Virus record (IMG/VR): IMGVR_UViG_3300043775_002819 | DNA: 64,000 nucleotides | Reading direction: 5' to 3' (one strand) | Source of the DNA: an uncultured virus (IMG/VR IMGVR_UViG_3300043775_002819) | Taxonomy: Duplodnaviria; Heunggongvirae; Uroviricota; Caudoviricetes | Shown here: one piece after another, positions 8,926 to 43,960 of the stretch | Layout: the number at the start of each line of letters is the position of its first letter | How positions within the stretch are numbered: position 1 is the first letter of the stretch | The notes under the pieces: generated by a model | Told to the model about the DNA's origin: nothing | Seen by the model: the letters and a program-made list of their open reading frames with translations, nothing else | The model's database searches: none | Position numbers and translations under genes: made by a program

Positions 8926-9192
8926 TTAAATAGCAGCAGCTCTATGATTTGAACAATTACTATTAAATCCAAAAGCACAATTATTACAACCTTCTGATTG
9001 TTCAGCAAAGTGCTTACAGATTGGATATGCCTTTTCACAACCGATAACTTTAGTGATTATGTGCATATCTGCTTCATATTCATTTTTAAAGTGTTTAATG
9101 TCGTTTTGTGTTTCAACCGCATAATTTCCAGTAAACCCGCTTTTGAATTTAATGTAATCTCCATTTGTTTCGTAACCTGATTTTGTTTTCAT
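8926..9192 (-). CDS. cassette-borne Cys-rich hypothetical protein
   Basis: ORF between sites E and F. Confidence 0.65.
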   Translation of the reverse strand: MKTKSGYETNGDYIKFKSGFTGNYAVETQNDIKHFKNEYEADMHIITKVIGCEKAYPICKHFAEQSEGCNNCAFGFNSNCSNHRAAAI

Positions 9193-9235
9193 ATTATTTT
9201 TATTTAATTTTAATAATTTACGCCATTAAAACGGC

Positions 9236-9286
9236 GGTTAACAGTTAGCAAGTGCAATTGAAACTGCACCTGCTTTTGTGTTAGCG
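9236..9286 (+). repeat. attC-like site F (duplicate of A)
   Basis: Same core and ~30 bp left flank as site A; R' GTTAGCG. Confidence 0.75.
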
Positions 9287-9493
9287 GTCATTGCTACCAA
9301 GCCACTTTACGCATTCGCAAAATCCAGCAATAAAGAACGATTGTTCCTGTGCTGTCAACGGTGGTTCTACCATTTCTGAAATTTTTACAGCCATTACCCC
9401 TGCTTCATCAACCGAAGGCAACGAACCGCTAACAACAGATATACCCAATTTGGGGTTCTGTGTTTCATTTGGATTTTCTGCTTTTTTTGTCAT
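9281..9493 (-). CDS. cassette-borne hypothetical protein, starts inside site G
   Basis: N-terminus PKLGISVVSGS is encoded by the attC arm; stop overlaps GTTA of site F. Confidence 0.65.
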   Translation of the reverse strand: MTKKAENPNETQNPKLGISVVSGSLPSVDEAGVMAVKISEMVEPPLTAQEQSFFIAGFCECVKWLGSNDR

Positions 9494-9557
9494 TTTGTTT
9501 ATAATTTAAAGTTTTTATTATTTAATCCCAAACTGGGTATATCTGCAACCGTTAGTG
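9427..9557 (+). repeat. attC-like site G (long loop)
   Basis: CGCTAAC-AA-CAGATATACCCAATTTGGG...CCCAAACTGGGTATATCTG-CAACC-GTTAGTG. Confidence 0.8.
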
Positions 9558-9755
9558 GCTATTTTGAGCAACATTGGTGTCAATTATAATCGGCTCAATA
9601 AAAGTCCCTAATTCGTATTTTTTATTTTCTCCTTTCGGGTACGGTTCAATTCCGTAATTTAGTTTTTTCATATACTCTTTTCTTTTTGTTTTACTTGTTA
9701 CGCAGTAAAATTCGTGTTCGTCTTCGGGTAGGTTAAATGTTAGTTTTGCTTTCAT
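9552..9755 (-). CDS. hypothetical protein, possibly chimeric
   Basis: Stop overlaps the R' box of site G. Confidence 0.5.
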   Translation of the reverse strand: MKAKLTFNLPEDEHEFYCVTSKTKRKEYMKKLNYGIEPYPKGENKKYELGTFIEPIIIDTNVAQNSH

Positions 9756-9785
9756 ATTATTCTGATTTAATTTTAATAATTTTAG

Positions 9786-9857
9786 CGGTCCATGCGAGAA
9801 TCGAACTCGCGGCTCATCCGTGACAGGGATGAATGTTAGCCACTACACCAATGGACC
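9786..9857 (-). tRNA. tRNA-Asp(GTC)
   Basis: GGTCCAT/ATGGACC stem, loop CTGTCAC, TTCGATT T-loop. Confidence 0.88.
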
Positions 9858-10180
9858 ATTAAAAAAGGTTCTGAATCATCCCCACGCCAGTTTGGGAGAA
9901 CCTTTCAAGTTTTAATATTTGACGACATAATATCCCTCACCGATATGACTAAGATTCGTTAGTCCATAGTAACCATCCACGGTGGGTTTATACTTTCACA
10001 CTCCGTCCTTATTCTATCTCACCATCGTGTCGGGTGGAATCAAACTCAGCGTTCAGTGTTATCCTCAGAACATCTTCACCATACCCCCAAAGTTACGTGG
10101 TGGGTCTCACTCGGAAGACGAGTGTATATTGTAAGATTGTTCAGTGTTCTTACAACTTGTGGATTGTATTACGATCACTT

Positions 10181-10311
10181 AAGACCCCTAACCCCCTCCA
10201 TCCATAATGGGGAACCCTTGTTTGTTCGTGTAGCCTCCCCCATAGCCTTGAAGCCTTCAAGTCAGGTTCACACCCATAACAGCCGGATACTTCTGTTAAT
10301 CGTGGGGTCTT
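10181..10311 (-). ncRNA. putative structured ncRNA, closed terminal stem
   Basis: AAGACCCC...GGGGTCTT terminal pairing, GC-rich, within tRNA transcript. Confidence 0.4.
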
Positions 10312-10314
10312 TTG

Positions 10315-10398
10315 AAGTCAGGGTAGGATTCGAACCTACAATGAGCAACCATTTTTAACAAAATGGATTCAACACCAGGTCTCTTTACACTCCTGACT
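10315..10398 (-). ncRNA. tRNA-like RNA (AGTCAGG acceptor, aberrant D-arm, GTT loop)
   Basis: AGTCAGG/CCTGACT stem, GTAGG-TTCGAAT-CCTAC T-arm, CCATT-TTGTTAA-AATGG hairpin. Confidence 0.6.
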
Positions 10399-10527
10399 AA
10401 CCTTTTTTTACAAATGTAAGACATATATTTAGACTAATCAAATTTTTTTAAAAAAAAAATATAATTTAGGGTTAGTTCGTATGACTTTTTTGTGGGTTCG
10501 TGATATTTATATATAAAGGAAGTTATT

Positions 10528-11430
10528 ATGTTTGAATGTAAAATTTGTAATCGTTATATTGATAATCTTGGTAATCTTAACCAACACATTAAAAAATGTG
10601 AAAAATTACATCTAATAAAAGATGAACTTATTAGATTATATATTGATGAATCTTATAGTGTTAAAGATTTAAGAAAAAAATTTAAATTACAATCTGATGA
10701 CATAAAAATAATATTAGGAGATAAAGTCAGATCGGCATCCGTGGCCAATAAATTAGCCCATAAAAAATATCCAGAAAACTTCAAACATACTGAAGAAAGT
10801 AAAAAAATAATGCGAGAAAAAAGATTGGAGTTTATGAAAAATAATCCTGAAAAAACTGCTTGGAGATTATCCAATGTTTCCTACCCAGAAAAATTATGTA
10901 TTGAATATATTGAAAAAAATGGTTTAGATAAAAAATATGCAATAGTTAGAGAATATTCGGTTTTTCCTTATTTTATTGATTTTGCGTTTGTAAATCAAAT
11001 GGTTGCTATTGAAATTGATGGATCTCAACATCTTTTACCCGAAAGAAAAGAAAGAGACGATAAAAAAGATAAATTATTAAATGAATTAGGTTGGTTAGTT
11101 ATCAGAGTTTCGGAAAAAGAAATTAAAACTAATATTAATAATGTTTTTGATGAAATTGTTTCAATACTGAATAAAAAACCAAAAATAAATAATATAAGAA
11201 TTGGTATGGTAGTTCACCCTAAAAAACACAAGAAAAAAGACAGAAATGAATTTGGTTTTACAGAAAAACAAATCCAATCAATGAAGAGTCAGAGAAAGGT
11301 TGAAAGGCCGAATCATGAAGACTTACTTAAATTGATTGAAGATAACGGTTTTAGGTCAACCGGAAAAATGTTTGGTGTTTCAGATACTGCAATTCGTAAA
11401 TGGGTAAAGTCTTACCAAAAAGGATTATAA
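10528..11430 (+). CDS. DUF559/Vsr-like PD-(D/E)xK endonuclease (putative homing endonuclease)
   Basis: N-terminal CxxC finger, KHTEESKKIM NUMOD-like motif, YFIDFA...IEIDGSQH...D...GWLVIR, C-terminal HTH; inserted antisense in the tRNA cluster. Confidence 0.8.
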   Translation: MFECKICNRYIDNLGNLNQHIKKCEKLHLIKDELIRLYIDESYSVKDLRKKFKLQSDDIKIILGDKVRSASVANKLAHKKYPENFKHTEESKKIMREKRLEFMKNNPEKTAWRLSNVSYPEKLCIEYIEKNGLDKKYAIVREYSVFPYFIDFAFVNQMVAIEIDGSQHLLPERKERDDKKDKLLNELGWLVIRVSEKEIKTNINNVFDEIVSILNKKPKINNIRIGMVVHPKKHKKKDRNEFGFTEKQIQSMKSQRKVERPNHEDLLKLIEDNGFRSTGKMFGVSDTAIRKWVKSYQKGL

Positions 11431-11433
11431 TTG

Positions 11434-11505
11434 TAGCCCATCCCGGTAACGCTCCGAGATTTTTTGGTTGAAAACCAAATGTCCTTACTTTTAGACGAAT
11501 GGGCC
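11434..11505 (-). tRNA. tRNA-Glu(TTC), non-canonical T-loop
   Basis: TTTGG-TTTTCAA-CCAAA anticodon arm; T-loop AGCGTTA. Confidence 0.8.
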
Positions 11506-11516
11506 AAATTAAGAGT

Positions 11517-11629
11517 GTAAAAGATTCGTCTTACCTAAGACCGCGGATCCCCATAAGACTTAACTTTACCAATCTGTTGATTTGCAACTCATCAGATTGT
11601 CAGGTTACTACTCATACAGAACCTTTTAC
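11517..11629 (-). ncRNA. putative structured ncRNA, closed terminal stem
   Basis: GTAAAAGGTTC...GAATCTTTTAC terminal pairing with internal hairpins. Confidence 0.4.
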
Positions 11630-11644
11630 TGCTTTCAGTGTTTA

Positions 11645-11722
11645 CTACGACCATACAGGATTCGAACCTGTGTCCTTCGGCTTGTGTGCCGACGCTCTAA
11701 CCGCTCGAGCTAAAAGCCGTAG
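11645..11722 (-). ncRNA. tRNA-like RNA with irregular anticodon loop
   Basis: Canonical D-arm (TAGCTC...GAGC) and T-arm; weak extended acceptor; loop ACACAA without U33. Confidence 0.55.
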
Positions 11723-11748
11723 ATATTTACTTTCCGCTTTTCTCTTAG

Positions 11749-11901
11749 TAACCCCAGTGGGAATCGAACCCACCTTGTGAACTACATGTAATAAGCTTCA
11801 ACTTTGATACTCCGATCCTAGTATTAAGGAGAGTTACTCGCAAATTACCCTCATTCACCCACTTATCGCCATGGTAGCGAACCATAACCGACTATGGAGT
11901 C
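11749..11901 (-). ncRNA. tRNA-like RNA with ~100-nt insert in place of the anticodon arm
   Basis: GACTCCA/TGGGGTT acceptor, GTGGG-TTCGATT-CCCAC T-arm; own TTTG...TATCTTTG promoter at about 11910-11945. Confidence 0.55.
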
Positions 11902-11965
11902 ATATTGTTAAAACAAAGATAAGTAGAATATTTCAATTTAACAAATCTTTTTTTAACTTTTTTTG

Positions 11966-12039
11966 CGGTCTGGACGGGACTCGAACCCGCGACCCCCTGC
12001 GTGACAGGCAGGTATTCTAACCAACTGAACTACCAGACC
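11966..12039 (-). tRNA. tRNA-Asp(GTC)
   Basis: Canonical cloverleaf, loop CTGTCAC. Confidence 0.92.
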
Positions 12040-12045
12040 AAGTTG

Positions 12046-12119
12046 TGGAGGTAAAGGGATTCGAACCCATGACCCTCTGCGTGCAAGGCAGATGCTCTAG
12101 CCAACTGAGCTATACCCCC
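12046..12119 (-). tRNA. tRNA-Ala(TGC)
   Basis: G3:U70, loop TTGCAC. Confidence 0.92.
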
Positions 12120-12196
12120 ATAACCAAAGTCGCTATTATAAGTAACGACTTTTTAACTTTTTCTCCACTTACTTCTTTCGAATGGAAGATAAGATG

Positions 12197-12269
12197 AGCG
12201 GAAGAAGAGACTCGAACTCTCAACAACCTGCTTGGAAGGCAGGAGCTCTACCAATTGAGCTACTTCCGC
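12197..12269 (-). tRNA. tRNA-Gly(TCC)
   Basis: GCGGAAG/CTTCCGC stem, loop CTTCCAA. Confidence 0.9.
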
Positions 12270-12486
12270 AAAGTGTGACAACCTTTGGGGTCGGTTATCA
12301 CTTTTACGTGAATGGGGTGATCAAACCCACTAACATCACGGGTGTTGGTTTTTCACATTAAACCATCTCCACAAAACGAAAGTTTTTATCAACCAAAACT
12401 TTATAAACGACTTGACTATTTTGTAACCCCCATTTTAAGTGCGTGTTACCTCTTTCTCAAGTAGAACTCTACTGTCGACACTCCCG

Positions 12487-12559
12487 TGCTGATGAAGGGA
12501 CTTGAACCCATAGCCTTGACGATATAAGCGTCCTGCTCTCACCATTGAGCTACATCAGC
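12487..12559 (-). tRNA. tRNA-Ile(TAT)
   Basis: GCTGATG/CATCAGC stem; GACG-CTTATAT-CGTC anticodon arm. Confidence 0.85.
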
Positions 12560-12566
12560 ATTATAG

Positions 12567-12649
12567 TTGCGGGAGGTGGGCTCGAACCACCGGGGTCAAA
12601 GACACGAGGTTATGAGCCTCGCCAGCTACCAACTACTTACTATCCCGCC
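12567..12649 (-). tRNA. tRNA-Met(CAT), initiator-like, with extra variable arm
   Basis: CGAGG-CTCATAA-CCTCG; 1:72 mismatch. Confidence 0.75.
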
Positions 12650-12656
12650 TTATTTG

Positions 12657-12731
12657 TGGTATGGGAATGGAATCGAACCATCGGCACAAGGGGTTTCCGT
12701 CCCTTTGCTCTACCTACTGAGCTACCACACC
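12657..12731 (-). tRNA. Phe-like tRNA with 8-nt anticodon loop (possible pseudogene)
   Basis: AAGGG-ACGGAAAC-CCCTT; normal D and T arms. Confidence 0.55.
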
Positions 12732-12758
12732 ATTTTATGTAAAATTACTAAAAATATA

Positions 12759-13268
12759 TTATTTAAACAACTTACCTTGATAATTTTTAGCAACTTCTTT
12801 TAATTTTTCATTTGAGTAGTTTGAGTGTTCTAATCTGTGACACAACGCACATAACAAATCACATTTATCTAACTCATTTTTCACTTTATCCCAACTCATA
12901 TTTGCCATGTTGAGGGCACTTGAGTTAAAATCTTTTTCTTCTGGGTCTCTATGATGAAGGTCATATCCTGATAAATCACCTTTCCACCCACACTTAACAC
13001 ATTCACCACCCAAATATTTAACCGCGTATTCCTTAACTCTATACCTTCGTATGTTTACAGAACACATTTGACAAAAATTCTTACTTGTTATTGTTTTTCC
13101 ACAAAGTTTACAACAAGTTTCTTCCTTTTTGTTATACTCAATTCCGTTTCTATTTATTATTCTATAAACCGTTCTTCTTCCAATACCTAAGTCATTAGAT
13201 ATTTCGGTCGGTGTTTTTTTTTCGGTATACAACCTAATAACCTCTAATTCTTTTTCTGTTTTCTTCAT
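12759..13268 (-). CDS. HTH + HNH endonuclease
   Basis: N-terminal HTH, CxxC pairs, YDLHHRDP and CDLLCALCHRLEH. Confidence 0.85.
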   Translation of the reverse strand: MKKTEKELEVIRLYTEKKTPTEISNDLGIGRRTVYRIINRNGIEYNKKEETCCKLCGKTITSKNFCQMCSVNIRRYRVKEYAVKYLGGECVKCGWKGDLSGYDLHHRDPEEKDFNSSALNMANMSWDKVKNELDKCDLLCALCHRLEHSNYSNEKLKEVAKNYQGKLFK

Positions 13269-13348
13269 ATCTCTTTATTAATAAATATCAAGAAAAAATA
13301 GAAAAGACACACTTTTAGTAAAAAAAAATATACTTTTTGTGTCTTTTG

Positions 13349-13450
13349 TAGTCAGGACAGGATTTGAACCTGTATTGGTGACCGACTTAATTACTTGGGA
13401 CTTGAACCCACACCACTCTTCCGATGCGTCTACCATTCCGCCACCTGACT
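13349..13450 (-). ncRNA. tRNA-like RNA B2 (AGTCAGG family)
   Basis: AGTCAGG/CCTGACT acceptor, TGGCGGAATGGTAGACGC D-arm, ACAGG-TTCAAAT-CCTGT T-arm, ~50-nt non-anticodon middle. Confidence 0.65.
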
Positions 13451-13465
13451 ATTTGAGGTTGAGTT

Positions 13466-13578
13466 CCTCTGTGTTGTCTGTACTGTTTTACCCCCAATCA
13501 AACGATTGACATTACTTTTAATGTAATCAGTTTCATACGTAGCGTCTGTTCAGTCTTCCTTTCTCAAGGGAACAACAC
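13466..13578 (-). ncRNA. repeat RNA module A2
   Basis: GTGTTGTTCCCTTGAGAAAGGAA...ACAACACAGAGG. Confidence 0.55.
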
Positions 13579-13582
13579 TTTG

Positions 13583-13702
13583 TAGTCAGGACAGGATTCG
13601 AACCTGTATTGTCATTGTGGCAGGCTATTCTACCTGCGACCTATATCTCGAATTTTATACGAGAACACTTTGAACTATTGGCAACCGTTTCGCCACCTGA
13701 CC
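13583..13702 (-). ncRNA. tRNA-like RNA B1 (AGTCAGG family)
   Basis: GGTCAGG/CCTGACT acceptor, same T-arm as B2, different ~70-nt middle. Confidence 0.65.
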
Positions 13703-13719
13703 ATTTGAGAATGAGAGGT

Positions 13720-13805
13720 CCTCTGTGTTGTAGTGTGCGATTACAATTTTTGTAATTCAAGTAATGTCACTCTTCTTTACAATTCCTTTCTCAAGGGAAC
13801 AACAC
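13720..13805 (-). ncRNA. repeat RNA module A1
   Basis: Same conserved ends as A2, different middle. Confidence 0.55.
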
Positions 13806-13955
13806 AATATTGTCGATAGTGTTGGAGTACCCATCTCGCTCCAATCTTAACTGCTTAATCGTAGTTTTACGAGGCCTCGGCAGAAACGGTGATGAATTCC
13901 TGATCCACTCTGGATTGTCGACATCCGTTGAGTGGGGTAAACCACTATCAATATT
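13806..13955 (-). ncRNA. putative structured ncRNA
   Basis: AATATT-GATAGTG...CACTATC-(GAC)-AATATT terminal stem, GC-rich interior. Confidence 0.45.
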
Positions 13956-13961
13956 TTAAAA

Positions 13962-14094
13962 TGTTTAACGGTTATAGATACTTTATTATCTCCACTTTTA
14001 GTTCCCAACGTAAAGATCACTCTTCCTAATTGTCTTTTAAGTTTCACAGATTTTTATCCTCTCTAACACTTTATCAATACTTTGCCGTTAAACA
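13962..14094 (-). ncRNA. putative structured ncRNA
   Basis: TGTTTAACGG/CCGTTAAACA 10-bp terminal stem. Confidence 0.4.
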
Positions 14095-14111
14095 CTTAAT
14101 ATCTTAAAAAA

Positions 14112-14334
14112 TGGTAAGACCTTAAGATTTACTCATTCGTGGGTCACCCCATCCGTACTACCTATACCTCGCCTTTAACATCCGTTCTACCCAAACCATC
14201 GTTTTTACCTGTTAACCTTTCGGAAAACTTTGAGTACCTCCTCAATCCATTAGTCTGATAGGGGCTCCGTTTTGCTCGTCATTTCTGACTCCCTATGGGA
14301 TTCTGCCGATATAGGTCTATCTGCTATCTTACCA
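14112..14334 (-). ncRNA. putative structured ncRNA (~220 nt)
   Basis: TGGTAAGA/TCTTACCA terminal stem directly after a boxA-like element at 14343-14353. Confidence 0.45.
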
Positions 14335-14479
14335 ATCTAATATGTCAATGAACTTTTTCTCTTTTGTGTGGGGGTGAGTCCACCATCACATTTTCTCACC
14401 CCCGTTGTTTGTTTTACAAATATAAGAACTTTATTTTGATCTGCCAAACACTTTGTAAAATATTTTTTATTTTTTTCTG

Positions 14480-14560
14480 TAGTCCGGGAGGGACTCGAAC
14501 CCTCACGCATTGCGCATTCGATCTTAAGCCGAACGTGTATACCGATTCCAACACCGAACC
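14480..14560 (-). tRNA. tRNA-Leu(TAA)
   Basis: TTCGG-CTTAAGA-TCGAA with long variable arm. Confidence 0.88.
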
Positions 14561-14643
14561 ATTTTCACCATTATGTCAAAGAACCTTTGTCTTTTGTTTC
14601 ACAAAGATAGTGATCTTTTTGAAACTACCAAACTTATATTCAC

Positions 14644-14673
14644 AAAAAAACCCCTCTTTTTTGGGGAGGGGTT
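14644..14673 (-). terminator. attenuator terminator 1
   Basis: AACCCCTC...GAGGGGTT followed by T-run, ~24 nt after the leader stop. Confidence 0.75.
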
Positions 14674-14696
14674 CTAAATATTATATGTATAAAATA

Positions 14697-14765
14697 TTAC
14701 ACCCTCCTCTTGAAAGTTGCCTCAGCTAAATCGCCCCCTATCAATAATATGTGTAAATTTTTCAT
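14697..14765 (-). CDS. putative attenuator leader peptide 1, MKNLHILLIGGDLAEATFKRRV
   Basis: Read manually; promoter upstream (TTGACA...TATATTTATA); 3' end GGAGGGT can pair with terminator arm ACCCCTCC. Confidence 0.7.
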   Translation of the reverse strand: MKNLHILLIGGDLAEATFKRRV

Positions 14766-14840
14766 TTGCGGTTTTTAAGTTTTGTTATAAATATATGATA
14801 CTTTTAGAAAGTGTCAAGTTTTATGGATTATTTTTTTAAT

Positions 14841-15230
14841 TTACGCCTCGTAGTGACTTGGGAACCATTCACCGCCATTTCTTAGATATTTCTCAATTTC
14901 TTGTGGGTCAACTAAATCTAAAACTAAATATTTTTTACCTTTTAAATCATCTTCAAAAAGTTCGTAACCAAATGTTTTACCATCGGGTGATTCTAACCAA
15001 TAGATATCCATATCATCATCTTTTATTAATTCAGTAGGTAATACTTCATTTGTCATAGTCCCAACCCAATACATTTGATATTTAGGTAATATTTCTTTAA
15101 CATACATAAATCCAGGATAATTCTCGTTATTGAAATAAACTTTACCTAATCTATTATTTTCATTTTCTTTAATCACTCGTTTAACTATGTTAGTCAAATC
15201 AGATTCTGTAATTCTTATTATTTTTTTCAT
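14841..15230 (-). CDS. hypothetical protein with MKKIIRITESDL leader
   Basis: Member of the repeated N-terminal leader family. Confidence 0.75.
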   Translation of the reverse strand: MKKIIRITESDLTNIVKRVIKENENNRLGKVYFNNENYPGFMYVKEILPKYQMYWVGTMTNEVLPTELIKDDDMDIYWLESPDGKTFGYELFEDDLKGKKYLVLDLVDPQEIEKYLRNGGEWFPSHYEA

Positions 15231-15302
15231 ATTAATAAATATGAGATCAAAAAGTTATTATTTTAGAAAAAATCTAAAATTTAGTATATATACTATTTTT
15301 TG

Positions 15303-15376
15303 TGCCCCCAGCAGGACTCGAACCTGCAAAATTGTGATCCTAAATCACATGCGTATGCCAATTCCGCCATAGGGGC
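15303..15376 (-). tRNA. tRNA-Leu(TAG), short variable loop
   Basis: TGTGA-TTTAGGA-TCACA; Leu-type D-loop; no long variable arm. Confidence 0.85.
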
Positions 15377-15384
15377 ATTTGTTG

Positions 15385-15456
15385 AGGTCAGGGTGGGATT
15401 CGAACCCACATACCGAGATTTTGCAGATCTGGACTTTACCTATCAGACACCCGACC
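15385..15456 (-). tRNA. tRNA-Cys(GCA)
   Basis: AGAT-CTGCAAA-ATCT; U73. Confidence 0.8.
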
Positions 15457-15458
15457 AA

Positions 15459-15914
15459 TTAACGACAATGAAAATCTGCCGCCTTTGTTGCAATTTGGTT
15501 ATCAGGTTTAATATTCGCCTTATAACCCAAAGAATTAACCCACCCAACCGCAGGACCAACCAACTTTGAACTAAAGTGTTGTTCTTGAGCGTTATAATCA
15601 AGATCAATCTCAAGTTTAACATTCACCTTACTTGTTAAAAAGTTTGCAACCTCAATTGAATAATCGGCTTCATTCCATAACCTTGTCCACTTATCACGAA
15701 TTTTTTTAACCTTATGTTTGTGATATATATAGTGAACTCCGCGGTTTCCATACCGATATGCTATTGCGGTTACATATACAGTCGATCTTCTGTGGTTTTG
15801 AGAATCAGTTCCAACATGAATTTCAACATAAGGACATTCATTTAAAATATCCAAAGTGTGTTTTGATATGTCAGAAACTGGATTTCCATCAACCTTTCTA
15901 AATACTCGGTTCAT
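15459..15914 (-). CDS. RNase H-like protein (YkuK/DUF458-like)
   Basis: IHVGTDSQ, RLWNEA..S, EIDLDYN, ATKAAD motifs. Confidence 0.8.
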   Translation of the reverse strand: MNRVFRKVDGNPVSDISKHTLDILNECPYVEIHVGTDSQNHRRSTVYVTAIAYRYGNRGVHYIYHKHKVKKIRDKWTRLWNEADYSIEVANFLTSKVNVKLEIDLDYNAQEQHFSSKLVGPAVGWVNSLGYKANIKPDNQIATKAADFHCR

Positions 15915-15937
15915 TTTATCTCCTTTTTAATTGTTTG

Positions 15938-16010
15938 TGGACCGGGACGGAATCGAACCATCCACGCCTAGATCTTCAGTCTAGCGCTCTACCAACTGAG
16001 CTACCGGTCC
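15938..16010 (-). tRNA. tRNA-Phe(GAA)
   Basis: CTAGA-CTGAAGA-TCTAG. Confidence 0.92.
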
Positions 16011-16015
16011 TTATT

Positions 16016-16091
16016 TGGCGCGTCGTCAGGGAATCGAACCCATGTCTATGCGAGGTTTTGGAGGCCTGCCGCTTCCATAAGCTACGACGCA
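16016..16091 (-). tRNA. tRNA-Trp(CCA), encoded CCA end
   Basis: Loop CTCCAAA; imperfect anticodon stem. Confidence 0.7.
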
Positions 16092-16098
16092 AATATTG

Positions 16099-16171
16099 TA
16101 CCTTCGGAGAGACTCAAACTCCCATCTTGTGATCCGTAGTCACAGGTTCTTTTCAATTGAACTACGAAGGT
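16099..16171 (-). tRNA. tRNA-Arg(ACG)
   Basis: TGTGA-CTACGGA-TCACA. Confidence 0.88.
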
Positions 16172-16177
16172 ATTTTG

Positions 16178-16251
16178 TGTGTATGATGGGGGTCGAACCC
16201 ATGACCTCTTGACCCACAATCAAGCACTCTGCCAACTGAGCTACATACACC
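16178..16251 (-). tRNA. tRNA-His(GTG)
   Basis: CTTGA-TTGTGGG-TCAAG; G-1 encoded. Confidence 0.88.
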
Positions 16252-16257
16252 ATGTAG

Positions 16258-16327
16258 TACCGATAAAGGGTATCGAACCAAATGACATCCAGGATATGAG
16301 CCCGGACCGGAAACCTTTCCTATCGGC
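16258..16327 (-). tRNA. tRNA-Met/Ile2(CAT), reduced D-arm
   Basis: CCGGG-CTCATAT-CCTGG. Confidence 0.65.
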
Positions 16328-16330
16328 AGA

Positions 16331-16684
16331 TTATAAAAAATTACTAATTTGTTTTAGTTTGTCTTTTAACTTGTTAAACTCTTTTCTACCCTTTATCAAT
16401 TTTTTACACTTTGGGTAAAATCTTATTGTATCATCACCAAGTTTCTCAAATTCAATTTCTAAATCAAAAATAATGTTTTCTATATTCTTATGATATTCAT
16501 TCTTAATGTCAAACCAAGGAAATTTTTCACCCCAATTTTTGTGTCCCCAACAAGATTGTGTTGTTCCGATGTTATTATAATTAAGTAAAACAATTAACTC
16601 TCTTATACCATCGTCAATTTTACAACCCAATCCATCTGTAACTATTTTTGATTTTTCATCTATTTTTTTATATCTGTCATTCAT
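16331..16684 (-). CDS. small protein with TYW3-like N-terminal motif
   Basis: IDDGIRELIVLLN...TTQSCWGH resembles the TYW3 IDxxI..LN..TTSSCSGR motif. Confidence 0.55.
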   Translation of the reverse strand: MNDRYKKIDEKSKIVTDGLGCKIDDGIRELIVLLNYNNIGTTQSCWGHKNWGEKFPWFDIKNEYHKNIENIIFDLEIEFEKLGDDTIRFYPKCKKLIKGRKEFNKLKDKLKQISNFL

Positions 16685-16709
16685 ATGAATTATTTTTTGT
16701 CATAAGTTG

Positions 16710-16793
16710 CGGAAGACATTGGAATCGAACCAAATACCCGAAGGTACATCTCGCTTAGCAGGCGGACCCTATCTCCATCAAGGTTTATCTTCC
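16710..16793 (-). tRNA. tRNA-Ser(GCT)
   Basis: Loop CTGCTAA; variable arm TACC-TTCG-GGTA. Confidence 0.8.
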
Positions 16794-16797
16794 GTAG

Positions 16798-16874
16798 TCG
16801 GCACAGTAGGAATCGAACCTACATGGGACCTATTAACCTTTCAACCGCGTATCAGACGGAGGGTATATGTGCCG
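16798..16874 (-). tRNA. atypical tRNA-Ile(GAT), no canonical D-arm
   Basis: CGGCACA/TGTGCCG acceptor, CCGT-CTGATAC-GCGG, canonical T-arm. Confidence 0.6.
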
Positions 16875-16884
16875 TAGTTTTTTG

Positions 16885-16956
16885 CGGACTGGGAGAATTA
16901 CGATATCTCGACCTCAACCTTAACAGGGTTTTGCTCTGCCTCTGAGCTACCAGTCC
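16885..16956 (-). tRNA. tRNA-Asn(GTT)
   Basis: Loop CTGTTAA; T-loop ATCGTAA. Confidence 0.82.
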
Positions 16957-16960
16957 AGTG

Positions 16961-17041
16961 TGGGAGAGGAGGGACTCGAACCCCCAAGGCTTTCGCGACA
17001 GATTTACAGTCTGCTGAGCCAACCAATTGCTCAACTCTCCC
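16961..17041 (-). tRNA. tRNA-Tyr(GTA)
   Basis: GCAGA-CTGTAAA-TCTGT with long variable arm. Confidence 0.9.
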
Positions 17042-17104
17042 AAAAATCTAATTCTATGATACCGTCGTCCACATAAGGTCTATGAATTAGTAACAGTCTC
17101 CTCG

Positions 17105-17178
17105 TGCACCCTACAGGGATCGAACCTGTGACCTGTTGTATGTAAAACAACCGCTACTACCTGCTGAGCTAAAGGTGC
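17105..17178 (-). tRNA. tRNA-Val(TAC)
   Basis: GTTGT-TTTACAT-ACAAC. Confidence 0.88.
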
Positions 17179-17250
17179 TTGTTTTAGTTTTTCAGAACAA
17201 AAGTAACCACTTTTTGGTAATGAACGCTCAGTTTTACTAAATTTTTTTTG

Positions 17251-17323
17251 TCCCCCCGGCCGGTTACGATCCGACTCTCCCCATATTAAAAGTATGGTGC
17301 TTTCCCGATTAAGCTACGAGGGG
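17251..17323 (-). tRNA. tRNA-Lys(TTT)
   Basis: CCATA-CTTTTAA-TATGG; T-loop ATCGTAA. Confidence 0.82.
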
Positions 17324-17383
17324 TTTTGTTTGTCATACTTGTCACTTTCCATGATACTTGTTTTTTTATTTGTTTATTTATAG

Positions 17384-17456
17384 TAGGGTAGACAAGACTC
17401 GAACTTGCATCGTCCACGTCCCAAACGTGGTGACTTACCAATTAGTCAACTACCCT
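17384..17456 (-). tRNA. tRNA-Pro(TGG)
   Basis: CCACG-TTTGGGA-CGTGG. Confidence 0.85.
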
Positions 17457-17459
17457 ATA

Positions 17460-17546
17460 TGGAGGAAGAGTGAGGTGTCGATCCCCATACCTTTCAGTAC
17501 CTGCCGTTTTCAAGACGGAGTCACAAGCCGTTGTGATTACTCTTCC
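17460..17546 (-). tRNA. tRNA-Ser(TGA), encoded CCA
   Basis: CCGT-CTTGAAA-ACGG with long variable arm. Confidence 0.8.
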
Positions 17547-17553
17547 ATTATCG

Positions 17554-17624
17554 TTGTCTCGGCTGGACTCGAACCAACACACCCGGAGTCAAAATCCGGT
17601 GCCCTGCCTTTAGGCTACGAGACA
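17554..17624 (-). tRNA. tRNA-Gln(TTG)
   Basis: CCGGA-TTTTGAC-TCCGG. Confidence 0.88.
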
Positions 17625-17640
17625 ATTTATGAAACCAATA

Positions 17641-17651
17641 TGTCAAAGAAC
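17641..17651 (-). promoter_or_regulatory. boxA-like antitermination element
   Basis: GTTCTTTGACA; also at 14574-14584, with variants at 2195, 3641, 14343, 19689. Confidence 0.55.
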
Positions 17652-17658
17652 CTTTTTG

Positions 17659-17730
17659 AGCTCCGTACCAGATTCGAACTGATTTCTTCTGATTACAAGT
17701 CAGACGCATCGCCATCAATGCTTACAGAGC
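17659..17730 (-). tRNA. tRNA-Thr(TGT)
   Basis: TCTGA-CTTGTAA-TCAGA. Confidence 0.88.
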
Positions 17731-17741
17731 CAATATAAAAC

Positions 17742-17773
17742 AAAAAACCCGAGATTTTTAAGTCTCGGGTTTT
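17742..17773 (-). terminator. attenuator terminator 2
   Basis: AACCCGAGA-loop-TCTCGGGTT plus T-run, ending ~11 nt before tRNA-Thr. Confidence 0.8.
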
Positions 17774-17804
17774 ACATTCCTTTTATTATGTTAGTTAAAC
17801 GTTT

Positions 17805-17909
17805 TTAACTCATAAGTGAAAATACCCTCGACTGATTTCGCGTAATATAGCTAAACGACCACTGATTGCTCGGTAGACAATTGACCATATGTTTGAGTGT
17901 ATTTTTCAT
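17805..17909 (-). CDS. putative attenuator leader peptide 2, MKNTLKHMVNCLPSNQWSFSYITRNQSRVFSLMS
   Basis: Read manually; TATATTTG promoter upstream; AGTCGAGGGTATT near the 3' end can pair with terminator arm AAAACCCGAGACT. Confidence 0.75.
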   Translation of the reverse strand: MKNTLKHMVNCLPSNQWSFSYITRNQSRVFSLMS

Positions 17910-17993
17910 TTTTATTATAATTATATCGTTTTTTTAAAAAGTTTCAATTTCTTTACAAATATAGTAATCTTTTTTTAATTGACAAGTTTTTTT

Positions 17994-18374
17994 CTAAAAT
18001 TTTATTATAACTCCTGTCGTATGAAAAACTTGACCATTACTTAATCCTGTGATAAAGGCTCGTTGAAACACCTTAACATTTGGAGATATGTAAAATCTTG
18101 CCCTTATGTCGTAAGAACCTGCAAATAAAATATCGTCCACGGTTAGATCAGAGAATTTATCCTGGAAGGGAACCCTTTTTAATTTGGTGCTTACCGACAA
18201 TTGGAATTGTCCATAATCAAGTTTATAAACATAATCATTTTTTGGTTTAAAGGTTATTTTTTTAAAGTTGGATTCCGCAATTGACTGATAATCCATATTT
18301 GAATATTGTCTCATCAAAGGTTGAGAATAACCAATGAAGGTAAAAAATAAAAGAGTAATAAAAATTGTTTTCAT
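17994..18374 (-). CDS. secreted protein, possible outer-membrane beta protein
   Basis: Signal peptide; C-terminal ...GVIIKF. Confidence 0.65.
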   Translation of the reverse strand: MKTIFITLLFFTFIGYSQPLMRQYSNMDYQSIAESNFKKITFKPKNDYVYKLDYGQFQLSVSTKLKRVPFQDKFSDLTVDDILFAGSYDIRARFYISPNVKVFQRAFITGLSNGQVFHTTGVIIKF

Positions 18375-18378
18375 AATA

Positions 18379-18876
18379 TTATTTTATCTCAAATGCACAC
18401 CTCATAGGTCGTTTTGTTTTAATTGAATCTTCAGGGTTTCCAATTACAACACCGTCTTTGATTGTAAAAGCGTGTCTTCTAACCAATACAAAGAAAGTTC
18501 CTTTTGGGTTTTGTTTAACAAATGTTCCAACGGTCATGTTTCTTTTTTTAGTCTCACCTTTTACTTTAACATCATACATTAATGATCTTAACAAATGATC
18601 GTTGTGTCTTACTCCAAGAGGACAAACTTTTTTACCGTTAACCTTGATCAAACTGTCGGCCATTTTAACAAGAGTTGTTATAGTCCCGTAAGTTCCTTTT
18701 CTTGGTTTTCTTCCAAACTCATCTGCAACGTATTTGTGAGCGTAATCATAAGACACATCGAATGAAGATGCAAATGCTCTAACAACACAATCATTTGTTT
18801 CTCCTTTGGCGATGGCAGAATCACTATATCCTTTAATCGCATTTCCTGTTTTTTCGTATGGTAATTTGTTTGTCAT
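18379..18876 (-). CDS. hypothetical protein (NDCVVRA motif, papain-like?)
   Basis: DCVVRA...RRHAFTI suggests a Cys/His dyad. Confidence 0.6.
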   Translation of the reverse strand: MTNKLPYEKTGNAIKGYSDSAIAKGETNDCVVRAFASSFDVSYDYAHKYVADEFGRKPRKGTYGTITTLVKMADSLIKVNGKKVCPLGVRHNDHLLRSLMYDVKVKGETKKRNMTVGTFVKQNPKGTFFVLVRRHAFTIKDGVVIGNPEDSIKTKRPMRCAFEIK

Positions 18877-18896
18877 ACTGTAAAGATAAGTAATTT

Positions 18897-19367
18897 TTAC
18901 AATTCAACAAAATAAAAACTAGAATTGTCATTAGAATTTAATGACTTATAACCTCTTTTTTGATAAATGTTGTTTGCAATTTCATTATCATTATCAGAAA
19001 TAAAAGATAGATAATTATATCCGTTATTTTTTGCAAATTCATGTGCCAAATCTAATAAGTGTGACCCATGTCCCTGTTTTCTATGGTTTTCATCCACCTC
19101 TAAAGTGTGCATAAAAAGACAATTATCATAATTTAATGGAATGGTTTGAAACTTGGATTCGTCATATAAAGTATTGAAGTTCAGATCTAAATTTTCACCA
19201 TCATTCATTTTGGATATATGGATAAAACCAATAGTATTATTATCAGGAGACGTTAACTCAATGTTTTTTCCAAAGTATCCATCTAAATCACCTTTATATA
19301 CAATTTGGACTTGTGGTTGTTCATACATCAAGTTTTTAATCCTGTGGATCTGTTCGTTGAGGTTCAT
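18897..19367 (-). CDS. GNAT acetyltransferase with N-terminal leader
   Basis: LEVDENHRKQGHGSHLL motif A, N...IYQKRGY; start set at MNLNEQ. Confidence 0.8.
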   Translation of the reverse strand: MNLNEQIHRIKNLMYEQPQVQIVYKGDLDGYFGKNIELTSPDNNTIGFIHISKMNDGENLDLNFNTLYDESKFQTIPLNYDNCLFMHTLEVDENHRKQGHGSHLLDLAHEFAKNNGYNYLSFISDNDNEIANNIYQKRGYKSLNSNDNSSFYFVEL

Positions 19368-19469
19368 AATTATAAATATCATAAAGATACTTATCATAAT
19401 CTTCAGAGTTAATAAACTCCTCGTGAATTTGTTGATGTATGTCTTCCATAATACTAATATAAATATATT

Positions 19470-19508
19470 TTAGTTTGTTCTAATTGTCACAGGGAAATTC
19501 ATGGGAAA
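19470..19508 (+). pseudogene. remnant of an HNH endonuclease C-terminus (LVCSNCHREIHGK)
   Basis: Manual translation; resembles the LLCALCHRLEH end of 12759..13268. Confidence 0.45.
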
Positions 19509-19512
19509 GTAG

Positions 19513-19584
19513 TAGGTCCACCTGGAATCGAACCAGGAATACAAGCTTAGAAGGCTAGGGTTATATCCGTTTAACTATGGACCC
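19513..19584 (-). tRNA. tRNA-Arg(TCT)
   Basis: Loop CTTCTAA. Confidence 0.88.
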
Positions 19585-19599
19585 ATATTTCACATTTTG

Positions 19600-19684
19600 C
19601 AGAGGAGGAGGGATTCGAACCCCCGGATCCGTAAAGATCAACGGTTTTCAAGACCGCCTCATTCGACCGCTCTGACACTCCTCT
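19600..19684 (-). tRNA. tRNA-Ser(TGA)
   Basis: GCGGT-CTTGAAA-ACCGT with long variable arm. Confidence 0.9.
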
Positions 19685-19711
19685 AACATTCAAAGAACTA
19701 TTATAAATATA

Positions 19712-20485
19712 CTAATTATTGTATAACATGTCAATTAGTTCTCTATCAATCGGTGCGTATTCTGTTGTTGTTGTCCAACCTTGATAAAAAATACTTTCAG
19801 GATATTTGTAAGAATCATCACATAAACCTAAAGATTGTGTTAATTCTTCACGAAGTAAATGTTTTTGCTCGAGTTCATTAGCCCTATGAATATCAACATA
19901 CATACAACCTGAATTTTGTTTAACTATAAAAAGACCCCAATTTGACTTTAGTAATCCATAATCAATGTTTGGTTTAATCAAACTAAAATCTTTGTAAGAT
20001 CCAAAATAAATATACATATTGGATAATGATGAATCAGAAACGATTTCGATATTGATGGGATCAATTATGTTGTTCAATTCCAATACAATTCGTTCCAACT
20101 CACTATTCAAAACTTCATTGGTGTTTCCTCCAACATATATTTTCATGTCCTTGTCCCAACGCTTAAGAACTTCACTATCACTTTTAAATTCACGACCTAA
20201 AGCGATTTCCTTGAAATACTCGACCGACTCGGCAGAATAAGATTTGTATTTGTTTTCATCAAAAGGTTCGGCCGTATTTCCACCACCAATCGATAAATCA
20301 TCGTTTTTGATATTTTGTTTGAGTGTGGATAAATCTGTTTTGAATATTTTTTCTACCTTTTCTAAAATGGCAATTTGCATTTTATCATTTAATAGACAAA
20401 AAACGATTAGACATAAAACTAAAACACTAATTAAACTTTTGATTGGATTTTTCATTTTTCTATTATTTGATACAAAGATAAACAA
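19712..20485 (-). CDS. DUF2927-like membrane-anchored protein
   Basis: N-terminal TM; HLLREELTQSLGL..DS...SIFY..D..LIDMLY. Confidence 0.7.
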   Translation of the reverse strand: MFIFVSNNRKMKNPIKSLISVLVLCLIVFCLLNDKMQIAILEKVEKIFKTDLSTLKQNIKNDDLSIGGGNTAEPFDENKYKSYSAESVEYFKEIALGREFKSDSEVLKRWDKDMKIYVGGNTNEVLNSELERIVLELNNIIDPINIEIVSDSSLSNMYIYFGSYKDFSLIKPNIDYGLLKSNWGLFIVKQNSGCMYVDIHRANELEQKHLLREELTQSLGLCDDSYKYPESIFYQGWTTTTEYAPIDRELIDMLYNN

Positions 20486-20507
20486 AAAAACTATACCACC
20501 AAAAAAA

Positions 20508-22271
20508 TTAGAAAAAACTTGTAATAATCCCGCTCTCTTTTACACCTTCTATAATTCCACAAACAATTTTGGTTGCCATCCCTTCTAATGCTCTAAATGC
20601 TGGTGTGTTTGCTGCTGCCTCAGTTACGGTATTTTTTAGGGCCGTATAAACAAAAGTTGATATAGTTCCAGCTTCACCACCTTTCATTGATACAACTGCT
20701 TTATCTAACCACGCCTCTAACGCTGATTTTGTAATAATTTCACTAAACTTTTCACAATCACTAATAAAATTCATATAATCCTTAAATTCAAGATTTGCAA
20801 AAATATTAGCGATTAAAAGAGCGAAATAACCATTTGGGTCGAAACCTGCCCAGCCAATTATTTTTTTTGCGATCGTCTCTTTAAATCCTTGACTTAGACC
20901 CGTTCCCAATTTACTTCCTAAATTACTAACTAAGTTTTTTCCGCCTTCTAAAGCTTTACTTCCAGCACTAGATAGAAAATCGGTTATTGCATTTTCATCC
21001 AATCTTTGGAATTTTTTGAAATCTTTTTGTAAGTCGAATAATGCACTTACAACCAACTGATCTGCTAATGACTCAACTAGTTGATTGTCAAATTGAATTT
21101 TTTTTTTATTAAAAGAAAGTCTTTTGAAATCTTCGTTTAATCTTTTGTTGATTTTTTTGTTAAGAGATTCTGTCATTGAAGAATACTTCGCTTTACCTCT
21201 TGCTCTGTTTAGATTTGCCAATCCGTATGGACCTGGATCTGAAAAAATTGCCTTATATTCATCTCCTTTTCCAAAAGGACCTTCGATAAAGTTTTTATCA
21301 CCACACGAAAGAGCAATAAACTTATCTCTAAATAGATTTGCGGAACATCCTGCTTTGTTTGTTTTTGTTTTGCAATCGTAAAGTCTTTTAATTACAGATT
21401 TACAAGCCTTTCTATCAGGAGTCAAAACTGAACCACCGTATTCACTTGTATAACTTGGGTCAGGGAAATATATTCCTGTATTTCTGATATCAGGATCAAT
21501 ACTTAATGATGGTAAATCTCCTTGAACGTCTTTTAGATAAAACCCATAATTTGCTTCATCGGTTCCTGCCTTTGGTTTGTTTTTTGTAAATCCTTGTTCT
21601 TTCATAAAGTCATCAACTTCACCTGCAACATCACCCATAGTTCCTTGATCTTGTTCGACTTTTTTCCAAACAATACCTTCACCTGGACTTTGTAATAAAG
21701 GTAATCCGTCAGCGTCTTTGAGATTCTTCATTTTATATTCTCTATAGTTCAACGGATCTTTCGGATCAGTTGAGGTAAATAAACCACCTTGTTTTTTAAT
21801 AAAAGCATCAAGTCTAGATCTATCATAAGCCGAAAGTTGTGCTTGTCCCACATCTTCTATTTTTTGTAAATATTGACACCCTTTTGCAATACCGTCAGTT
21901 ATCCTGTCGGCAACTGCTCCTGTTGTAACTCTGTATCCTAATAATGCTTGATCTGTTAAGTTCGGATCTTGCATACCAAAAACAACTATAATATTTCCAC
22001 TACCATCGTCTCCGGAAGCAAAGGCAACACTTTCTTTACCCGAGTTATAAACATCTTTGAATTTAGCCATTAATGGTTGTCCGCTAGTTGTATCTTTTGG
22101 TGATGTTCTACTCATAGACTTAATCGCCTTATCTTTTAGAAAAGATATACCTTGGCAAAAATTAATAGTATTTTGCAATACTTTACCTGTATCGGAGACA
22201 TTAACTCCTTTAGTTTCTTTACTAGCTTCTTGTTCTAATAGGATTTGTGTTAGTTTTTTTGAAATATCCAT
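20508..22271 (-). CDS. large hypothetical protein, putative virion protein
   Basis: 587 aa with ILLE leader. Confidence 0.75.
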   Translation of the reverse strand: MDISKKLTQILLEQEASKETKGVNVSDTGKVLQNTINFCQGISFLKDKAIKSMSRTSPKDTTSGQPLMAKFKDVYNSGKESVAFASGDDGSGNIIVVFGMQDPNLTDQALLGYRVTTGAVADRITDGIAKGCQYLQKIEDVGQAQLSAYDRSRLDAFIKKQGGLFTSTDPKDPLNYREYKMKNLKDADGLPLLQSPGEGIVWKKVEQDQGTMGDVAGEVDDFMKEQGFTKNKPKAGTDEANYGFYLKDVQGDLPSLSIDPDIRNTGIYFPDPSYTSEYGGSVLTPDRKACKSVIKRLYDCKTKTNKAGCSANLFRDKFIALSCGDKNFIEGPFGKGDEYKAIFSDPGPYGLANLNRARGKAKYSSMTESLNKKINKRLNEDFKRLSFNKKKIQFDNQLVESLADQLVVSALFDLQKDFKKFQRLDENAITDFLSSAGSKALEGGKNLVSNLGSKLGTGLSQGFKETIAKKIIGWAGFDPNGYFALLIANIFANLEFKDYMNFISDCEKFSEIITKSALEAWLDKAVVSMKGGEAGTISTFVYTALKNTVTEAAANTPAFRALEGMATKIVCGIIEGVKESGIITSFF

Positions 22272-43156: not shown

Positions 43157-43960
43157 TTTTTCCCATAAAATTCTAAAAATTTTTTTTAGTATATATGACC
43201 TTTTTTCAAAAAGGGGGGTCGTGTTTTAGAAAACCTCCACCCTTAATAAGACATAGGGAAAAATATCAATTTTTTTCCAGAAATTTTTTTACGAATACTT
43301 TATAGAGGGGATTGAACCCCCCTTTCCCCTGACAGAATGTCACTTATGGGGGGAATACGGTAGGGGGGAGGGGGTATATAATAAGGTAGGGGCCCATGCC
43401 AAAGAAGAAGGGAGGGAGTGGTTTGTTAATAACTTTAATTGACAATTAAGTGATCCGTTATTTGATCATCTCATTTTTTTTCACTACCTTTGTGTCATAG
43501 ACCGATACGTCAGTTGAGTATTGTAACCTTCATTAACGAGGGGGACCGAGTAGACTCCATCCTGCCTTATAGTTTAGAAACATACAAGCATAAAAAAATT
43601 CCCCACCTATTAGAAAGAGATTAGATTAAAGAACCCCTCGTTAGAAGTTCGTATGTCTTATTTGTTTTAAACCTCATCTTAATCTTTACATGTCACTTGG
43701 ATCATTGATTAACTAATTCCCAACTGTGGGGAAAATAAGATTCTTATTATAAATATATTATTCTTTTAAAAAAGATCAATGGTTTATTTGTTTATGTCAA
43801 AATAAATTTCTATCTTTGTATTGAAGGTGATGATCACATATTCGGGCTGGGGGAGAAACACCTCTTGGAGTGTAGACTCCAATCTGCACTAATATATTAT
43901 TATTGATCCCCCAATATTTAATTTGATGGTGTGAAATAATATTCGTATATTTATATTATT

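Follow-up and report, generated by a model that had tools for sequence, protein, structure and literature searches.

Organization of the locus

The DNA analyzed here is a 64,000-nucleotide stretch (the window) of a large freshwater phage, recorded as the uncultured virus IMGVR_UViG_3300043775_002819, and its subject is a pair of short leader open reading frames (ORFs), each followed by an intrinsic terminator and a block of phage tRNA genes. Window coordinates are used throughout, and both modules and both tRNA blocks lie on the minus strand. The two modules form a real, conserved pair of leader-ORF terminator switches before the tRNA blocks, with a codon content that is matched block by block.

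Along the minus strand, the first module consists of promoter motifs, a 34-codon ORF, a hairpin holding the stop codon, an intrinsic terminator and then tRNA-Thr. A preliminary description, made from the sequence, had proposed this arrangement as a leader-peptide attenuator; the layout was found in the window and is conserved in 96 distinct leaders. The outermost element is a putative Bacteroidetes-type promoter motif (TTG, 19 nt, TAnnTTTG) at 17956..17985, detected by a regular-expression scan and kept in relatives, which reads TTG-N19-TATATTTG (17985-17956). It is followed by a sigma-70-like hexamer pair, TTGAAA-16-TATAAT (17920..17947; 11 of 12 positions), that lies within a 30-nt motif common to the second module. 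Leader ORF 1 (17805..17909; 34 codons plus stop, 16 amino-acid types, rare synonymous codons) includes the predicted 5' strand of an antiterminator at 17811..17832 (ORF nt 78-99, codons 26-33), and the stop codon falls within the 5' arm of hairpin H2 (17794..17809), both elements being identified from folds and covariation. The terminator T1 with its U tract spans 17738..17773 (stem 17773-17744). Behind it, tRNA block 1 (15302..17730, from ARAGORN and Rfam) comprises Thr, Gln, Ser-tga, Pro, Lys, Val, Tyr, Asn, a marginal Ile-gat, Ser-gct, Met, His, Arg-acg, Trp, Phe, Cys and Leu-tag, together with two small protein ORFs.

A second, paralogous module (14817-14644), overlooked in the preliminary description, stands ahead of the distal tRNA block. 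The 30-nt motif from the 5' region of leader 1 recurs there at 14813-14784, and three copies were found in the window against 0.08 expected. Module 2 contains a putative sigma-70-like promoter motif (TTGACA, 16 nt, TATATT; 14790..14817), leader ORF 2 with 22 codons plus stop (MKNLHILLIGGDLAEATFKRRV; 14697..14765), a predicted antiterminator 5' strand formed by the last codons of this ORF (14702..14709; truncated folds and covariation), and the intrinsic terminator T2 (14644..14673), which has a 6-bp G+C stem, a 9-nt loop and T7 and was missed by a first terminator scan with a loop limit of 8. tRNA block 2 (9785..14560) carries Leu-taa, Phe, Met, Ile-tat, Gly, Ala, Asp, one odd tRNA, Glu and Asp, with protein ORFs interspersed. 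The third copy of the 30-nt motif (43746-43775, minus strand, 3 mismatches) precedes a short CCCCA/TGGGG hairpin, with no leader-like ORF.

The TAnnTTTG-type promoter motif is enriched in the window, with 22 matches in the regular-expression scan vs 4.9 in shuffles. The TAnnTTTG box is given as the sigma-A consensus of flavobacteria (PMC9723704). The Flavobacterium host of the preliminary description is putative.

tRNA content of the two blocks

ARAGORN called 25 tRNAs in the whole window, all on the minus strand, including an Arg-tct and a Ser-tga upstream of leader 1. The preliminary description had counted 17 tRNAs downstream of this leader. With default settings ARAGORN found 13 of them in the block 1 region (15302-17730), and at the 90% threshold 16, the additions being Ser-tga, Ser-gct and Met-cat. 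The seventeenth, Ile-gat (16798-16874), is marginal, as it was detected by Rfam alone at 28.9 bits vs a cut-off of 29, and ARAGORN was silent even at the 85% threshold. This gene is clear at the same place in relatives, and the window copy may be decaying or bearing an insertion. The further statement that the operon lacks tRNAs for Ala, Asp, Glu and Gly applies to block 1, with the caveat that these tRNAs lie on the same strand further down (9785-12269), behind the second leader.

A few additional observations were made in the distal region. ARAGORN reported a tRNA-like gene with an irregular anticodon loop (11646-11720), and Rfam a 102-nt tRNA match of 42 bits (13349-13450), uncalled by ARAGORN, that is possibly a tRNA with an insertion. 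A 300-aa ORF (10528-11430, plus strand) and a 169-aa ORF (12759-13268, minus strand) lie among the distal tRNAs; their Cys/His motifs resemble those of homing endonucleases by eye only.

Composition and codon use of leader 1

The peptide encoded by leader ORF 1 has 34 residues of 16 amino-acid types, with Ala, Asp, Glu and Gly all missing, as the preliminary description had stated. At phage composition, the chance of finding none of these four in 33 residues is 1.1e-4, and the joint chance that they are missing while the other 15 types are all present is 2e-6. None of 11,318 34-residue windows from long ORFs lacked all four. The six frames contain 190 small ORFs of 30-40 aa; Ala, Asp, Glu and Gly were all missing from 14, and the exact set was found in leader ORF 1 only.

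The codons were also claimed to match the tRNAs, and for most of the boxes this was borne out, since Leu is encoded by CTC, CTA and CTT, Ile by ATT and Ser from both boxes; module 2 reinforces the match. The AGG codon is where the claim gives way, as it needs Arg-tct, which in the window lies upstream of the leader (19512-19584) and in most relatives lies within the block. A 165-aa gene (18379-18876; phrog_3754, function unknown) is likewise found inside block 1, between Trp and Phe, in most relatives (L010, L017, L024 and others); in the window it is upstream of the leader, and the block has therefore been rearranged, Arg-tct having moved along.

The ORF favours rare synonymous codons (log-likelihood -46.2 vs -28.6, sd 3.4; 0 of 20,000 draws as low), and 33 random codons would cover all 17 block-1 boxes with P=1.2e-4. 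Leader 1 is without codon runs, so the tandem or clustered codons of a sensed amino acid that mark classical attenuators are absent from it.

Division of the codon table between the two leaders

Leader ORF 2 has four Leu codons, all TTA or TTG, and two Ile codons, both ATA, as well as two Gly, two Ala, one Asp, one Glu and one Phe codon. The distal block supplies tRNAs for these Leu and Ile boxes and for Gly, Asp, Ala, Glu and Phe. The only tandem codons are Leu-Leu and Gly-Gly. Jointly the two leaders sample all 20 amino acids, and they split the Leu and Ile boxes as the two tRNA blocks do. In the window, codons in boxes exclusive to block 2 make up 0/33 in leader 1 and 12/21 in leader 2 (Fisher 8.6e-7), compared with 31% in phage genes, and the probability that 21 random codons cover all eight block-2 boxes is 0.028.

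The same division was seen across the family. Leu codons in leader 1 are CTN in 165 cases and TTR in 13, and in leader 2 TTR in 73 and CTN in 1, at a CTN share of 33% in phage genes; Ile codons are ATY (163) rather than ATA (3) in leader 1 and ATA (34) rather than ATY (13) in leader 2, with ATA at 29% in phage genes. BLAST searches recovered 32 distinct module 2 copies in relatives, in which the ORF could be parsed in 28 and the terminator in 30. All 20 distinct leader-2 ORF DNAs are open over 22-24 codons, and all of them hold Ala, Asp, Glu, Gly, Ile, Leu and Met.

Conservation of leader 1 in related phages

The neighbouring 165-aa protein led to 46 uncultured phage contig loci. There, 13 distinct versions of the leader ahead of tRNA-Thr keep the promoter motif, the ORF, the stop-codon hairpin and the terminator even with different upstream genes, and their indels are multiples of three inside the ORF and not so outside. 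A frame-aware DNA pattern extended the set to 56 viral and at least 120 metagenome loci. A profile search over all 350 loci then gave at least 219 leader matches, at least 198 of them complete, corresponding to 96 distinct DNAs and 71 distinct peptides; counts for the leader 1 family are among the matches listed. At one relative locus (L015, about 11100-11180), the leader 1 profile matched the promoter and 5' part only, ahead of tRNA-Ile(gat) and with the ORF absent, and the promoter module therefore also occurs alone.

Conservation of the ORF had been proposed as a check on the attenuator, and the frame proved open in 96 of 96 distinct DNAs (34-37 codons), a conserved reading frame such as attenuators have; the frame-aware pattern constrains in-frame features no further than codon 18, and beyond it the frame was free to break and stayed intact. 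All 16 amino-acid types are held by 68 of the 71 distinct peptides. In a tree-based null, the tree was fixed and all 208 parsimony changes stayed on their own branch and in their own column, the new residue alone being redrawn from the distribution in that column. This yielded 38.9 complete peptides (sd 11.4, maximum 67), and none of 2000 draws reached the observed 68. The positions of Cys, Ile, Val, Leu, Gln and His differ between clades. In the one clade with a Cys/Ser relocation a 5-bp helix was seen by eye, and part of the relocation signal may be RNA-driven there. The residues M1, K2, M8, P14, W18 and T25 are invariant in the 71 peptides. Third codon positions are as constrained as the others (entropy 0.445 vs 0.335 for first and 0.494 for second positions), and rare codons are fixed, for example CCG in 91/91 and ACG in 89/91.

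tRNA content was compared across 45 distinct loci in which the sequence continues for at least 3 kb past the leader. T1 is followed first by Thr-tgt in 42 of them, with a median start 21 nt past the GGG of the 3' arm. Leu-tag was reached in 39 of these loci, and in 38 of the 39 blocks all proximal-block tRNA specificities were present in the peptide, the one exception being dubious. tRNA-Ala was missing from the proximal block in 25 of 26 blocks.

The frame-aware leader pattern had no match in one genome per prokaryote species and so gave no host hint, and a DNA search of 17600-18400 against deposited phages returned one short, unrelated match. The closest deposited phages are two uncultured phages of 634-642 kb with 37-43% identity in one protein; phages of this kind have reportedly been assigned to Bacteroidetes hosts.

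Strong nucleotide conservation of this kind could also point to RNA elements that are read by a phage or host factor, either through protein-dependent antitermination or through direct tRNA binding as in T-boxes, with incidental reading frames. A promoter, a short region, a terminator and delayed genes are also the layout of factor-dependent antitermination in phages. Incidental frames are hard to reconcile with 96/96 and 20/20 open frames in which the start is fixed and the stop varies within three codons (34-37 and 22-24). In addition, no Rfam family reached its cut-off, and searches of 9000-21000 and of 17700-18000 gave no T-box match at E<=1. We regard this explanation as very improbable.

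Terminators and competing antiterminators

T1 has 11 pairs (5 G-C), an 8-nt loop and a following T run, at -15.4 kcal/mol; the hairpin scores on the plus strand too. Compensatory changes were found in 4 of the 11 pairs among relatives, and the T2 stems likewise change in step between relatives, so that in both modules a terminator stands before the genes. tRNA-Thr starts at 17730, about 8 nt past the T1 U tract, which leaves no room for a promoter between them. The sole weak sigma-70-like match in this interval (17761-17732, 9/12) would initiate inside the tRNA, and the earlier statement that no promoter separates terminator and tRNA-Thr is upheld.

None of 200 shuffles folds as well as the 220-nt leader (z -3.4). 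Applied to 22 leaders in one mixed alignment, RNAalifold recovered nothing but the terminator, the subgroups being shifted relative to each other, and subgroups were then folded separately. In subgroup C the duplex between the end of ORF 1 and the terminator 5' arm reached -17.5 to -21 kcal/mol (p<=0.01 in 4/4). With the sequence cut ahead of the 3' arm, 91 leaders outside this subgroup share a consensus fold, a long hairpin in which GGGY (codons 28-29) pairs with RaCCC of the terminator arm, stacked on the stop-codon hairpin. The second base of codon 29 (GUA Val/GCA Ala) covaries with A/G in the terminator arm (column 95:151; CG 60, UA 30, UG 1, mismatch 0), and by eye in the alignment the Val/Ala change recurs within clades. 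For the module 1 antiterminator, 55 cells are changed on both sides vs 19.3 (sd 2.9) in shuffles, and 0 of 500 shuffles reach this value. The stop-codon hairpin (helix 4) is paired in 97.2% of cells, with one pair being UA in 57 and AU in 25 sequences.

Module 2 behaves in the same manner. In 20 of 22 truncated folds the last codons of ORF 2 pair with the 5' arm of T2, and the antiterminator of this module has 8 pairs, 95.4% paired, 4 of them changed on both sides, a score reached by 0 of 500 shuffles. Covariation thus supports, for both modules, a predicted antiterminator that excludes the terminator and uses sequence a ribosome could mask. In full-length folds of both modules the start region pairs with the antiterminator strand, a candidate for the 1:2 pairing (anti-antiterminator or pause hairpin) of attenuators; these columns are invariant, so covariation is uninformative on them. 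The stop codon of leader 1 lies 17-20 nt behind the antiterminator strand, and a terminating ribosome should therefore mask most of this strand.

Contigs from four metatranscriptome runs were also inspected. They cover the leader in three runs and bridge T1 into tRNA-Thr in two, with DNA carry-over possible; being contigs, they convey neither levels nor RNA ends. A common contig end at 17781 in two runs, together with the uncovered parts, was considered as evidence and rejected, as overlapping contigs suggest strain branching.

The bridging contigs, along with the good conservation of the peptide at the six invariant residues, would be expected if the ORFs encoded small functional peptides with their own promoters and leaky terminators, the tRNAs being transcribed by constitutive read-through with no sensing. 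We consider this improbable. Equal constraint at third codon positions is not the pattern expected if a protein were selected, RNA pairing determines the Val/Ala residue, and the ORF ends form covarying antiterminators in both modules. Furthermore, the leader 1 peptide had no PHROG match, the PHROGs families near either small peptide being uninformative on function, and the codon split between the leaders would be unexplained.

Relation to known regulatory systems

Attenuators of amino-acid operons include E. coli trp, his, leu and pheA, and the multivalent thr and ilvGMEDA attenuators sense more than one amino acid. The phage modules resemble these in having a promoter, a short ORF, a competing antiterminator and terminator, and a stop codon placed for masking by the ribosome. 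Unlike the classical cases, they precede tRNA genes rather than genes for biosynthetic enzymes, and the codons of leader 1 are spread over 16 amino acids (17-18 codon boxes), with one or a few codons for each and no tandem runs. The codon table is shared out between two complementary modules, which are carried by a phage and have Bacteroidetes-type promoter motifs. A T-box binds uncharged tRNA directly, requires no ORF, and chooses between terminator and antiterminator; the phage modules would likewise read tRNA status into that choice, and differ in having ORFs.

The Rfam family Thr_leader (RF00506) was considered for the segment 17738-17817, which aligned with it over a hairpin and the A-tract, G+C stem and U-tract terminator behind this hairpin. 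Membership was rejected at 33.2 bits vs a cut-off of 55, with 41 model positions deleted and a match that is essentially the terminator.

Other upstream ORFs (uORFs) act as sensors of translation. In the toiL uORF of E. coli topAI-yjhQ, stalls at different positions are reported to change the downstream RNA structure, making it a multipurpose sensor of translation stress (PMC12121999). toiL differs from the phage modules in using ribosome-binding-site occlusion and Rho-dependent termination, in responding to antibiotics, in having a toxin-antitoxin target, and in showing no codon match to the target. For mycobacterial whiB7, uORF-linked attenuation is reported to answer translation stress and amino-acid (alanine) starvation (PMC10274678); a transcription factor is controlled there, and the phylum is a different one. 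No paper on leader-peptide control of tRNA genes was found in the open-access literature.

Proposed mechanism and its weighing

Given the features described above, the window fairly probably contains two paralogous leader-peptide transcription attenuators, each gating one phage tRNA block. The analysis shows the sequence parts and their conservation, the covariation of the two hairpin states and the codon statistics, and from there we infer that the ORFs are translated, that the terminators function, and in which direction the switch works and on what signal. In each module a promoter would be followed by a translated short ORF and, immediately ahead of the first tRNA, an intrinsic terminator; the last codons of the ORF could pair with the terminator 5' arm as an antiterminator. 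A fast ribosome reaching the stop codon would cover this strand, allowing the terminator to fold and RNA polymerase to halt before the tRNAs. A ribosome delayed anywhere earlier would leave the strand free, and the antiterminator would then permit transcription into the tRNA block. Since the codons of an ORF belong to the boxes that its own block serves, a ribosome slowed at any of them should raise transcription of the matching tRNAs, and plentiful tRNAs would bring about shut-off, a negative feedback. The codon-matched leaders thereby suggest that tRNAs may be made on demand. Tentatively, and with some reserve, we propose that each block is gated by its own codon-matched test track, so that the phage might gauge decoding box by box, induce only the matching replacement tRNAs, and close the loop with its own tRNAs. 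Host anticodon nucleases that cleave tRNAs could be among the triggers, as could a codon demand that shifts in the course of infection.

Several observations weigh against codon-specific sensing or against parts of the switch. The preliminary description had expected leader codons to covary with the tRNA content of the operon, and at fine scale this did not hold: across the 45 loci the complete peptide stays the same over blocks of 3 to 19 tRNAs (3, 5, 6 or 8 included), and leader content follows no recent tRNA loss. Ala (42/71 peptides), Gly, Asp and Glu do occur in leader 1, almost always without a matching tRNA in the proximal block, Ala being frequent because codon 29 covaries in the RNA pairing. 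All 18 codon boxes are found in only 53 of the 96 leaders, CGN Arg being missing in 38, and leader 2 has eight codons for tRNAs outside block 2. With one codon per amino acid, the leverage is much smaller than in classical attenuators with their tandem runs. Some of the rare codons lie within a small conserved hairpin (helix 1), and part of the codon bias may come from RNA structure. The tree-based null, in turn, depends on one parsimony reconstruction and roughly ten deep clades.

Additional difficulties concern the RNA structures and the second promoter. The preliminary description had pointed to pairing between the leader end and the terminator 5' arm, and this pairing draws its support from covariation and from the energies in subgroup C. 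In the window itself the duplex (-8.0 kcal/mol) does not exceed shuffles (p=0.62), and in the window and 11 other leaders outside subgroup C it is weak (-6.2 to -10.8 kcal/mol, p 0.13-0.77 vs shuffles). When the RNA is truncated, the minimum-energy fold lacks this pairing for 5 of the 16 leaders, and under a crude mask with the ribosome at the stop codon about 6-7 pairs persist in the window and almost all of them in subgroup C. For module 2, a Bacteroidetes-type promoter motif (14602..14631, regular-expression scan) lies between T2 and tRNA-Leu(taa) in the window. The insert bearing it is missing in most relatives. tRNA-Leu(taa) comes next in 18 copies, and in 11 of these it begins about 55 nt nearer the module (by ARAGORN start).

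Some of these points would be accommodated if the modules were real ribosome-dependent attenuators that sense general translation status (ribosome supply, coupling, or a global slow-down after infection), with the codon match as a by-product. Leader content that is constant while blocks lose tRNAs, single codons without runs and the eight out-of-block codons of leader 2 all agree with such a sensor, and uORF sensors are known that answer many translation stresses, as is reported for toiL (PMC12121999). We nevertheless judge it unlikely, because it leaves unexplained both the reciprocal split of the Leu and Ile boxes and of Gly, Ala, Asp and Glu between the leaders and the retention of all 16 amino-acid types beyond the tree-based null.

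Implications for phage tRNA regulation

To our knowledge, the regulation of phage tRNA genes is largely unknown. Recent work describes phage tRNAs that replace tRNAs destroyed by host defences (PMC10264068, PMC11464382, PMC11555353). If paired attenuators with codon-matched leaders indeed control such genes, this would represent demand-driven control, with the logic of the trp operon applied to the translation machinery itself. The leaders would then be a compact natural reporter from which the availability of tRNAs could be read for many codons together, and they would account for conserved small ORFs that annotation pipelines pass over in large phages. The occurrence of two complementary modules in one genome makes the idea directly testable by leader swap or recoding.

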